From Mannheimia granulomatis (lineage in GTDB: Bacteria > Pseudomonadota > Gammaproteobacteria > Enterobacterales > Pasteurellaceae), in assembly GCF_011455695.1 (NCBI RefSeq), contig NZ_CP015030.1:1825716-1849715 (forward strand): a stretch of 24,000 nt of DNA, written 5' to 3'. The notes beneath the pieces are model-generated. The model searched no databases and was not told the DNA's origin. It worked only from the letters and a program-made list of their open reading frames with translations. The position numbers and the translations under genes are program-made. Shown here piece by piece: positions 2,215 through 3,357 of this stretch; within the stretch, counting starts at the first letter, position 1; each line of letters opens with the position of its first letter.

Positions 2215-2231
2215 TCTTTCCCAGACCTGTA

Positions 2232-2257
2232 GGGGCGAAACATCTTTCGCCCCTTTT
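2232..2257 (+). terminator. Rho-independent terminator immediately after dnaK
   Basis: GGGGCGAAA-catc-TTTCGCCCC forms a 9-bp GC-rich stem and is followed by TTTT. Confidence 0.8.
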
Positions 2258-2262
2258 GCATA

Positions 2263-2289
2263 TAACCTAGCATAATCCGTGCTAGGTTA
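2263..2289. other. Perfect 10-bp stem hairpin (TAACCTAGCA-taatccg-TGCTAGGTTA) with no U-tract
   Basis: Read directly. It lies between the dnaK terminator and direct repeat 1. Function unknown. Confidence 0.5.
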
Positions 2290-2311
2290 CGCATAGCCCT
2301 CCGGCGCTGTG

Positions 2312-2343
2312 CAAGCGGTGATTTTTTAAGAAAATTTTGCAAA
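2312..2343 (+). repeat. 32-bp direct repeat copy 1 (CAAGCGGTGATTTTTTAAGAAAATTTTGCAAA), containing a one-off USS core (GCAAGCGGT)
   Basis: Identical 32/32 to 2780-2811. The flanks diverge immediately on both sides. Confidence 0.9.
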
Positions 2344-2353
2344 AGGTAACATT

Positions 2354-2779
2354 ATGAGCCGATACCTCATCACTTTCGATATGGACACCAATTGTCTAAA
2401 AGAAAACTACCACGGCAATACATTCAATAATGCCTATTACGATATTCGCAACGTATTGAAACAGCACGGCTTTGAAAATTTGCAAGGGAGCGTTTATTTA
2501 GGTAATGAAGGCATTAGTGAGGCTCATGGAACCATTGCAATTCAAGAGCTTACCGCAAAATTTAAGTGGTTTTACCCTTGTGTATCGAATATCAAATTTT
2601 ATCGGATTGAAAGTGATTTAAATGCAGATTTCATCGCCTACAACGTGCATAAAGCACGAGAAAAATTTGAAAAGCAGTTACAGGTTTTAGAACAAACATT
2701 AGTTGATACAGGTTTAAGCCGCATTCAAATTGATGAAATTCTGAAAAAGCAGGTGTTTAGTTTAGAAGAACAATCGTAA
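2354..2779 (+). CDS. vapD: VapD-family (Cas2-like fold) putative endoribonuclease with a ~45-aa C-terminal extension
   Basis: 141-aa ORF with an SD (aaaagg) 8 nt upstream. The N-terminal ~95 aa carry motifs I recall for VapD proteins: Y-L-I-T-F-D-M near the N-terminus, NAYYDIR, GF-x3-QGSVY, and WF..V..I..YRIE. Family assignment is from memory of H. influenzae and H. pylori VapD, not a search. Confidence 0.8.
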   Translation: MSRYLITFDMDTNCLKENYHGNTFNNAYYDIRNVLKQHGFENLQGSVYLGNEGISEAHGTIAIQELTAKFKWFYPCVSNIKFYRIESDLNADFIAYNVHKAREKFEKQLQVLEQTLVDTGLSRIQIDEILKKQVFSLEEQS

Positions 2780-2811
2780 CAAGCGGTGATTTTTTAAGAA
2801 AATTTTGCAAA
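2780..2811 (+). repeat. 32-bp direct repeat copy 2, containing a perfect USS core (ACAAGCGGT at 2779-2787)
   Basis: Identical 32/32 to 2312-2343. It starts the base after the vapD-like stop codon and ends at the A of the next ORF's ATG. Confidence 0.9.
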
Positions 2812-3113
2812 TGCTAAAACTCTATCCCACATCCGAAAACGTGCAAGCACCGTTCTATAAAATTTATGATCGGAAAACAACAAAAACGATTATTGCAACG
2901 GAAGTAGAAAACGGTCACACACCGATTTTAATAGAGGATTTTATTTGGTTTGAAACAATTCCAACCACAGAAGCCTTGCTGGCAGAAACTTGGGCGAACC
3001 TTGAAAACCGTTCTAAACAAGGTTTATTAAAGCGTGCTTATACGCTTGATTTTGAAAAACATCTGCCAGAAGGCAAAGTCGAGATTTATATTGCGGTGAA
3101 TCCGCATTGTTAA
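2811..3113 (+). CDS. Hypothetical protein (100 aa from the ATG at 2811; a TTG at 2805 is possible), with no family I recognise
   Basis: An open frame with a plausible globular composition, followed 20 nt later by a hairpin plus TTT (3134-3155). There is no clear SD, because the start lies inside the repeat. Confidence 0.5.
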   Translation: MLKLYPTSENVQAPFYKIYDRKTTKTIIATEVENGHTPILIEDFIWFETIPTTEALLAETWANLENRSKQGLLKRAYTLDFEKHLPEGKVEIYIAVNPHC

Positions 3114-3132
3114 GATAACCGGAGATCTAATC

Positions 3133-3303
3133 CCCCTCTTTAGAAAAGAGGGTTTAGGGGAGATTTGATTACGATTTCAAAATTTCGTATGAGCGTAAAT
3201 CACTTCTGCCACAAACGCTTGAGTTTGAACGTTGCTTTAGCAACGGCACATAGTGTGAGCGAAGCGAATAAATCTCCCCCTGCCCCTCTTTGCTAAAGAG
3301 GGG
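3133..3303. repeat. MITE-like or structured-RNA-like element: imperfect 33-34-bp terminal inverted repeats around a 103-bp core
   Basis: The left arm 3134-3166 is ccctctttagaaaagagggtttaggggagattt. The reverse complement of the right arm 3270-3302 is ccctctttagcaaagaggggcagggggagattt, giving 28/33 identical. Each arm also contains its own 8-9-bp hairpin (CCCTCTTT/AAAGAGGG), and the core holds the hairpin CGTTGC-ttta-GCAACG. Confidence 0.5.
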
Positions 3304-3312
3304 AGCAAAAAA

Positions 3313-3321
3313 ACAAGCGGT
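3313..3321 (+). repeat. Apl-type USS core ACAAGCGGT
   Basis: Exact 9-mer, 37 nt upstream of the dnaJ ATG. Confidence 0.85.
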
Positions 3322-3357
3322 CAAAAACATAAAAAAATTTACAAACACGGAAAAACT

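Follow-up and report, generated by a model that had tools for sequence, protein, structure and literature searches.

A cargo slot for co-oriented accessory genes, including vapD, between dnaK and dnaJ of Mannheimia granulomatis and other Pasteurellaceae

Introduction

In Escherichia coli, dnaK and dnaJ are carried by a dicistronic transcript made from promoters upstream of dnaK, with a 2.1-kb dnaK-only species as the main band in Northern blots (PMC3082872), and in Salmonella the spacer between the two genes mediates their differential expression (PMC12077118). The enterobacterial spacer is structured and allows DnaK to be made above DnaJ (PMC3082872, PMC12077118); it spans approximately 85 to 130 nt and matches tpke11. 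Here we analyze the same region of Mannheimia granulomatis in a 24,000-nucleotide stretch of contig NZ_CP015030.1 (positions 1,825,716 to 1,849,715, below called the window), where dnaK and dnaJ are separated by a spacer of 1,143 bp that holds a vapD gene, a second small gene and several hairpins. This locus resembles the dnaK-tpke11-dnaJ operon of E. coli and Salmonella in that sigma-32 promoters are seen only upstream of dnaK, whereas in Pasteurellaceae the spacer is occupied by protein-coding cargo and has a terminator-like hairpin; the Rfam family tpke11 (RF02031) was detected in the spacer at 6 of 6 Enterobacterales control loci, at 0 of 4 Pasteurellaceae loci, and nowhere in the window.

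VapD proteins have been described as stand-alone enzymes and as toxins. With Xf-VapD from the Xylella plasmid pXF51 (PDB 5DYR), which is a thermostable protein and an RNase in vitro (PMC4687846), and with the stand-alone VapD of Helicobacter pylori, the Mannheimia protein shares a Cas2-like core, long C-terminal helices, the catalytic Asp and Ser, and the absence of an adjacent antitoxin; it differs from Xf-VapD in being encoded on the chromosome, between dnaK and dnaJ, and is known here from its sequence and a structural model. The type II toxin-antitoxin (TA) pairs VapXD, VapYD and VapWD of Haemophilus influenzae and other bacteria involve the same superfamily and the same catalytic residues (PMC11980593), but the Mannheimia vapD has no upstream antitoxin gene, and its product falls under the cutoff of the short-form NCBIfam model.

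The second gene of the interval compares with the GyrI-like/Cass2 proteins (PF14526), among them VCH_CASS2 (3GK6), the C-terminal domain of BrlR, and BmrR. Horizontal-transfer hotspots between conserved core genes are familiar, as is natural transformation driven by uptake signal sequences (USSs) in the Pasteurellaceae. The locus is like such hotspots in its variable cargo between highly conserved flanks, its naturally transformable family, and the USSs at its module boundaries, but this hotspot is embedded in an operon, with whose direction its cargo strictly agrees.

Results and Discussion

The interval is made of three independent modules

Between conserved ends, the dnaK-dnaJ interval of M. 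granulomatis consists of three independent modules, namely the vapD unit, a GyrI-like gene and a long-hairpin element. The reading we favor, with a probability of approximately 0.68, is that a leaky terminator behind dnaK permits read-through that carries passenger genes, which reside in a cargo slot with conserved ends. Each feature listed in the first-pass annotation of the window was confirmed at its position: the ORF coordinates agree with a dnaK stop at 2214, a dnaJ ATG at 3358 and 1,143 bp between them, and the hairpins, direct repeats, ORFs, inverted-repeat element and USS of the gap were all recovered. The window VapD, 100-aa protein and DnaJ are identical to three consecutive GenBank entries of M. 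granulomatis (QIM67422, QIM67423 and QIM67424), and the gene families of the interval are known and already annotated. The features are as follows.

216-243, + strand: sigma-32-like promoter upstream of dnaK, CTTGAAG-N13-CCCCTATTT, from a pattern scan
316-2214, + strand: dnaK, 632 aa, 97% identity to Mannheimia haemolytica DnaK
2231-2257, + strand: terminator-like hairpin (2231-2254; 10-bp stem, CAUC loop) plus U4, a proposed leaky terminator or attenuator
2263-2289, + strand: second hairpin, dG -14.8, z -5.3
2312-2349, + strand: extended Apl-type USS, left repeat copy, forming the left boundary of the vapD indel (468 bp)
2354-2779, + strand: vapD, stand-alone long form of the Cas2-fold nuclease family, 141 aa, annotated as VapD (QIM67422)
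2780-2817, + strand: extended USS, right repeat copy, overlapping the start of the 100-aa gene; the sole copy at the empty site of M. haemolytica DSM 10531
2811-3113, + strand: shortened GyrI-like/Cass2 gene, 100 aa (QIM67423, hypothetical protein)
3133-3303, + strand: long-hairpin element, an inverted repeat with a copy of the hairpin CCCCTCTTTnnnAAAGAGGGG at either end
3313-3321, + strand: USS ACAAGCGGT within the conserved dnaJ leader (USS, AT-rich stretch, ribosome-binding site)
3358-4494, + strand: dnaJ, 378 aa, identical to M. granulomatis QIM67424

The window was compared with the M. haemolytica type strain DSM 10531 (97% identity in DnaK and 96% in DnaJ), M. haemolytica LR134495 (locus L083), the sister M. 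granulomatis-like AVSP01 (L081), and a metagenome contig (L082). Alignment to relatives, the check that the first-pass annotation had proposed, revealed a clean empty site in DSM 10531: the vapD unit of exactly 468 bp (2312-2779) is absent, and what is retained comprises the 100-aa ORF, the dnaK hairpin and the second hairpin, and one copy of the USS. The other three relatives carry vapD. The hairpin element, roughly 150 bp, is absent from AVSP01, where a single hairpin CCCCTCTTTAGAAAAGAGGGG stands instead. The interval had been described as one mosaic accessory insert; that it is mosaic and partly dispensable is borne out by these two absences, but a single insert it is not.

A family-wide slot with variable, co-oriented cargo

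A DnaJ-anchored genome scan with one genome per species returned at least 23 Pasteurellaceae loci, 22 of them with both dnaK and dnaJ, and a comparison group of 57 Enterobacterales and Orbales loci among the matches listed. Among these matches, the spacer measures 113 to 1,744 bp at the 22 Pasteurellaceae loci and about 90 to 270 bp at the 57 others, and a split dnaK-dnaJ operon is thus normal in Pasteurellaceae. A compilation of cargo ORFs from the scan loci and from further loci fetched separately comprises 32 ORFs in 18 sequence families, and all 32 lie on the dnaK/dnaJ strand. The GyrI-like family occurs at 9 loci, vapD at 5, a DUF6622-like membrane protein at 2 and one unnamed family at 2; the remaining 14 families are singletons. 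Content varies even within species or very close species-level clusters, as in four genomes labeled Haemophilus haemolyticus, in Glaesserella parasuis and in M. haemolytica. The ends of the slot are conserved, with a hairpin and T tract, usually directly 3' of dnaK, on the 5' side and a USS-containing dnaJ leader on the 3' side; the leader, from USS to ATG, is kept in Mannheimia, Actinobacillus, Glaesserella, Nicoletella, Bibersteinia and Muribacter. A literature search, in a searchable literature that is incomplete, found no earlier description of a dnaK-dnaJ cargo slot, and an operon-embedded, co-oriented, family-wide slot with likely read-through expression appears to be undescribed so far.

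Some slots hold unusual content. In Bibersteinia trehalosi (L016, 4529-5955), the slot has a 190-aa ORF and a gene for a protein of 285 aa whose N-terminal domain is a 2Fe-2S ferredoxin, and in H. influenzae 51P10H1 (L021, 4838-5933) there are three small ORFs for which no family match was found. A cargo ORF starts a few bases past the dnaK stop in L006 (G. parasuis type strain, 5629-5910), L005, L011 and L021; the cargo of L006 lies clearly upstream of the terminator-like hairpin, and such cargo would be expressed at the dnaK level rather than at the read-through level.

A terminator-like hairpin behind dnaK is a family trait

The hairpin at 2231-2254 folds with a dG of -17.3 kcal/mol (z -5.2), and 0 of 200 shuffled sequences fold equally well. 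Its U tract is just 4 nt, and a consensus terminator scan gave no call there; from the dnaK hairpin to dnaJ, that scan flagged only a weak 6-bp USS hairpin at 2305-2320. What had been called a strong terminator at 2232-2257 is therefore upheld as a hairpin but not as a strong terminator. Nearly all Pasteurellaceae loci have a hairpin with a T tract between dnaK and dnaJ, in most cases directly 3' of dnaK and even where the spacer is only 113 to 135 bp, and by this distribution the dnaK hairpin is ancestral. Because it is ancestral and occurs in minimal spacers too, how dnaJ is expressed is a question about the whole family and not a consequence of the insert. The earlier claim that dnaJ depends on read-through or on insert promoters accordingly keeps its regulatory core, as no sigma-32 motif precedes dnaJ, and loses its tie to this particular insert.

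The second hairpin, previously noted as a 10-bp stem at 2263-2289, was found again by folding; its stem is kept in M. haemolytica and AVSP01, with different loops. Directly 3' of the T tract of the dnaK hairpin lies the motif GGTGTAT, which is kept at 9 loci from distant genera (Volucribacter, Actinobacillus, Haemophilus), a conservation that exceeds what a terminator tail would require.

Promoter patterns and transcript levels favor read-through

Promoters were sought with a sigma-32 pattern of CTTGAAA, 13 to 15 nt, and a CCCCATNT-like motif. The promoter reported upstream of dnaK is present at 216-243, and 20 of 21 Pasteurellaceae loci have one or two such motifs upstream of dnaK. The consensus scan found none in 2215-3357, and none of the 21 related loci has one just before dnaJ, in line with the first-pass annotation. 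That annotation had also seen no convincing sigma-70 promoter before dnaJ, and the sigma-70 pattern matches the window about as often as chance would give (10 matches against 9.3 expected); a consensus promoter search gave no convincing dnaJ promoter. Candidates picked by eye, near the conserved GGTGTAT and within the hairpin element, were dropped because their spacing broke the rules.

Published RNA sequencing (RNA-seq) of G. parasuis bears on transcription across such a slot. In strain 29755, the consecutive genes dnaK, vapD and dnaJ have log2 fold changes (log2FC) of 3.35, 3.15 and 2.68 and baseMean values of 179,700, 3,978 and 9,792, respectively (PMC6684057, table S2). Converted per nucleotide, by a rough length normalization of baseMean values that mix two growth conditions, these become approximately 94 for dnaK, 9.3 for vapD and 8.6 for dnaJ, i.e., a roughly ten-fold fall after dnaK and equal density thereafter; the fall is consistent with partial termination. 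In a second study of G. parasuis (Nagasaki) under high temperature and iron restriction, vapD and dnaJ are adjacent entries with log2FC above 10 (PMC6219065, supplement 1), and the text describes DnaK as induced. In the searchable text of both papers, dnaK and dnaJ go unmentioned where vapD is discussed. The prediction that the toxin-like gene would come under heat-shock control fits these data, in which dnaK, vapD and dnaJ rise together.

The favored reading starts from the anatomy of the locus, the empty sites, the variability and co-orientation across the family, and the promoter pattern, all of which are observed; co-regulation of dnaK, vapD and dnaJ is seen in G. parasuis only, and from it we infer read-through in M. 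granulomatis. Under this model, the sigma-32 promoter upstream of dnaK would be where transcription starts; the majority of transcripts would end or be cut at the dnaK hairpin, and approximately one-tenth would reach dnaJ after crossing vapD, the GyrI-like gene and the hairpin element. The E. coli operon, with its prominent dnaK-only RNA beside a dicistronic message (PMC3082872), is a precedent, and the differential expression mediated by the Salmonella spacer (PMC12077118) likewise supports the model. A leaky hairpin of this kind would keep DnaK well above DnaJ, and the passengers would gain heat-shock control. The model predicts strict co-orientation, since antisense cargo would interfere with dnaJ expression.

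If dnaJ, and perhaps vapD, had instead its own promoter inside the interval, the operon would be truly split and the passengers would not be under heat-shock control via dnaK. The stable hairpin with a U tract 3' of dnaK is compatible with such a split, as are a weak sigma-70-like match (9/12) at 3063-3092 and the differential dnaK/dnaJ expression allowed by the Salmonella spacer (PMC12077118). An internal promoter sits poorly, however, with sigma-70 matches at chance, with the absence of the sigma-32 motif before dnaJ at every locus examined, and with the sequence upstream of vapD, which is not conserved between genera; in spacers of 113 to 135 bp that have the same hairpin it would hardly fit, and the three G. 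parasuis genes shift together with vapD and dnaJ at one per-nucleotide density. On balance, we consider it unlikely.

Several points weigh against the read-through model with its cargo slot. The transcript evidence comes from G. parasuis, and it carries the mixed growth conditions and rough normalization mentioned above. Equal vapD and dnaJ densities could also arise if vapD had an upstream promoter with the same response as that of dnaK, and the ten-fold fall could reflect differential mRNA stability rather than termination. Consensus pattern scans could miss an unusual promoter in the insert or the hairpin element. For the slot itself, 14 of the 18 cargo families consist of one mechanically called ORF each, and the genome scan sampled one genome per species, with at least 23 Pasteurellaceae loci. 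To these is added the history of vapD: between genera, VapD identity does not follow that of DnaK or DnaJ (Spearman 0.12 to 0.24), and from this decoupling some lateral exchange is likely, with a history that is not purely vertical.

vapD encodes a long-form VapD and is under purifying selection

The identification of a VapD-like gene holds: the protein scores 30.3 bits against the Pfam Cas2 family (PF09827; gathering cutoff 23.8) and matches Xf-VapD (5DYR) along its full length (residues 1-140; E 5e-54 by profile and 4.9e-42 by single sequence). Matches to 3UI3, 6ZI0 and 9KAN are at E 1e-8 to 1e-10, and the VapD cores of H. pylori, H. influenzae and Campylobacter match more weakly than 5DYR. 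Against the NCBIfam equivalog NF041506, which describes the short, 91-aa form, it scores 66.9 bits, below the cutoff of 100, which points to the long, Xylella-type form. In the alignment with VapD of H. influenzae, H. pylori and Xylella, whose motifs are FD and QGS, residues D9 (FDM) and S46 (QGSVY) take the corresponding positions, in a family whose catalytic Asp and Ser have been named (PMC11980593); S46 is invariant among 18 homologues, and D9 is present in at least 90%. An AlphaFold2 (AF2) model (pLDDT 87.7) predicts a ferredoxin-like beta-alpha-beta-beta-alpha-beta core (strands 4-10, 40-44, 47-50, 77-84 and 87-90; helices 25-37 and 56-69) followed by long C-terminal helices (92-131). Altogether, sequence and model place the product in the VapD/Cas2 superfamily nuclease family, with nuclease activity known for homologues. 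Among the PADLOC defense models, only Cas2 models match vapD and none match the 100-aa ORF, and no CRISPR context is evident.

The dN/dS of vapD is 0.006 to 0.07, compared to 0.02 to 0.08 for dnaK, and that of the GyrI-like gene is 0.11 to 0.20; by these ratios, both cargo genes are under purifying selection. Between the window and M. haemolytica, dS is 0.89 for vapD, 0.60 for dnaK and 1.08 for dnaJ, and the likeness of these values indicates that vapD is not a recent arrival. The gene occupies the dnaK-dnaJ slot also in G. parasuis, Haemophilus paracuniculus, 'Macca' and Lonepinella; it lies outside the slot in Avibacterium and is plasmid-borne in Neisseria.

The 100-aa gene is a shortened GyrI-like gene and an improbable antitoxin

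Comparison with homologues places the start of the 100-aa ORF at ATG 2811 and not at TTG 2805 as in the ORF list. The ORF had been described as unknown; its match to Cass2 (PF14526) is weak (19.3 bits, cutoff 27), but homologues of 125 to 143 aa in the same slot score above the cutoff (42.3 bits for one of 134 aa) and are annotated as 'GyrI-like domain-containing protein'. The Mannheimia form is approximately 25 residues shorter, in the region of the first helix. Its AF2 model (pLDDT 89.4) finds GyrI-like domains as the top Foldseek hits in the PDB (5XBI, 3GK6, 5KAX, 3LUR and 2BOW), albeit weakly (E 0.02 to 0.5, TM 0.5 to 0.6). We take it as a shortened GyrI-like/Cass2 gene.

The gene is present in M. 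haemolytica, M. varigena, M. granulomatis and M. indoligenes, and GyrI-like genes occupy the same slot in Haemophilus spp. and Muribacter as well as Mannheimia. Judged by this distribution, the 100-aa gene is a long-standing resident of the slot across the genus and several other genera, and the view that it belongs to the accessory insert does not survive.

Adjacent, co-directional small genes invite the explanation that vapD and the 100-aa ORF form a self-stabilizing TA pair, all the more as VapD is the toxin of the VapXD, VapYD and VapWD systems (PMC11980593). However, the two are found apart: G. parasuis, H. paracuniculus and Lonepinella have vapD but no GyrI-like gene, and M. haemolytica DSM 10531, M. 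varigena, Haemophilus spp. and Muribacter have the GyrI-like gene but no vapD. The antitoxins known for VapD are the products of upstream genes, with SH3-like or VapD-like folds, whereas the 100-aa protein is GyrI-like, and for approximately half of the VapD homologues there is no partner gene associated with them (PMC11980593). Upstream of vapD, 2215-2353 contains no ORF and hence no antitoxin candidate, and no homologue of the helix-turn-helix (HTH) ORF overlapping vapD on plasmids of Neisseria turned up in the window or at the seven Pasteurellaceae vapD loci searched. With no adjacent cognate antitoxin found, the pair is ruled out on the independent distribution of its two genes, and we give it only a sliver of probability.

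The direct repeats are extended uptake signal sequences

The direct repeats noted on either side of the VapD-like gene (2312-2349 and 2780-2817) are 95% identical over 38 nt. Apl-type USSs are recognized by the core ACAAGCGGT, phased AT-rich flanks and strong over-representation, and the window contains 15 CAAGCGGT cores against 0.4 expected, with a shared consensus in the 30 nt 3' of the core of the form ATTTT...AAATTTTGCAAA. Flank identity is 28/30 for the repeat pair and up to 24/30 for one unrelated pair in the window (mean 13, sd 4.4). The excess of cores and the flanks shared by an unrelated pair indicate that the direct repeats are ordinary extended USSs, and this rules them out as insertion or transposon scars. 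The further USS announced before dnaJ is at 3313-3321.

A recent insertion of a mobile element or cassette (transposon, miniature inverted-repeat transposable element [MITE], or integron-like), with the repeats as duplication scars, would account for the exact bracketing of vapD and for the clean indel junctions, and it could draw on the relatives of the 100-aa ORF in a Pfam family named for an integron cassette protein and on the VapD homologues of small Neisseria plasmids. Apart from the nature of the repeats, it is countered by an interval with no transposase or integrase gene, by flanking USSs of vapD that in M. haemolytica LR134495 diverge much more from each other, by a vapD dS equal to that of the flanking genes, and by a hairpin element that is specific to this locus. 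We regard such an insertion as very improbable.

At two other co-directional junctions of the window, 8443-8480 (- strand) and 21850-21887 (+ strand), a stop codon is followed by an extended USS ending in TTTTGCAAA, with the next start approximately 30 to 85 nt on. The order of stop, USS, short AT-rich stretch and ATG is the same as at the vapD and 100-aa ORF junctions.

The long-hairpin element is specific to the dnaK-dnaJ locus

The inverted-repeat element reported at 3133-3303 has 34-nt arms that are 85% complementary, and it folds as a single long hairpin (dG -71.7, z -7.6); a duplex of this kind is a plausible RNase III substrate. A homologous 110-nt element with a long duplex (z -8.7) occurs in the dnaK-dnaJ spacer of Haemophilus genomes including H. 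haemolyticus, and 9 of 10 metagenome copies are in that spacer, just 3' of the dnaK hairpin. No further copy was found in the 24-kb window, and a MITE or dispersed repeat, suggested by the inverted ends, is ruled out by copies that are specific to this locus.

In Rfam, the element scores 27.1 bits against RtT (RF00391; cutoff 45) and 23.1 against AaHKsRNA22 (RF02902; cutoff 39.8), and the whole window has no match at gathering score. For the Haemophilus copy, the sole matches are to generic hairpin (miRNA) models, and for this reason the RtT and AaHKsRNA22 matches were treated as mostly those of a generic hairpin. The position of AaHKsRNA22 in Aggregatibacter was sought and not located. Relative to Haemophilus copies, the window copy has an extra 59 nt at 3190-3260, and this portion (GAACGTTGCTTTAGCAACGGCAC...CGAAGCGAAT) resembles, below threshold, the consensus of RtT and of Aggregatibacter sRNA 22. 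On the Logan metagenome contig (L082, 1234-2095), the GyrI-like gene, a hairpin and the left end of the element are followed by an unrelated minus-strand gene in place of dnaJ, the result of a rearrangement or else of a join made at a repeat during assembly.

Turnover and possible roles of the slot

Cargo would be gained and lost probably by homologous recombination after natural transformation, with the conserved dnaK and dnaJ serving as arms, and it may also be lost by deletion between repeated USSs or repeated hairpins; this route is suggested by the indel junctions and the mosaic identity to AVSP01. Along window positions 1-6900, identity to AVSP01 swings between 88 and 100% per 150 bp, including within dnaK (1201-1650) and dnaJ (4051-4350), a pattern that suggests frequent short recombination tracts. 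The segment from vapD to the 100-aa ORF is 97 to 99% identical to AVSP01, but in a region that is mosaic throughout such identity says little about a recent transfer of this segment.

More tentatively, and at somewhat less than even odds, the locus may be a selectively maintained 'stress-expression slot', in which unrelated small accessory genes are swapped by transformation, dnaK and dnaJ serving as the arms, and strictly co-oriented for expression from a sigma-32 read-through transcript that also makes DnaJ and that they have to leave unblocked, with VapD as a heat-shock-induced passenger whose activity might even depend on the flanking chaperones. If this is true, vapD, which is listed as a virulence marker in G. 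parasuis, would be a heat-shock-induced operon passenger without an antitoxin, and its shifts with growth condition in that species would be explained by its place in the dnaK operon, where it moves with dnaK and dnaJ. A core operon would then appear in a different light, i.e., as a parking place in one family that confers heat-shock or stress regulation on accessory genes. The slot would offer a natural system for how a leaky terminator sets the ratio of chaperone to co-chaperone, how much foreign cargo an essential operon tolerates, and whether flanking genes of high conservation serve transformable bacteria as universal homology arms in interspecies gene exchange. It varies between strains of Mannheimia, Glaesserella and Haemophilus, which include veterinary and human pathogens.

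Downstream of dnaJ

In the window, a GC-rich hairpin at 4513-4533 (GAGGGAGGG...CCCTCCCTC, about -18 kcal/mol) lies 3' of dnaJ without a T tract, and a convergent methyltransferase-like gene ends at 4562. In M. haemolytica LR134495, the end of a Mu-like prophage (L083, 6110-8426), with a CI-type repressor, an HTH protein and a Mu transposase, is found directly 3' of dnaJ, which in that genome is called at 370 aa compared to 378 to 379 aa elsewhere.

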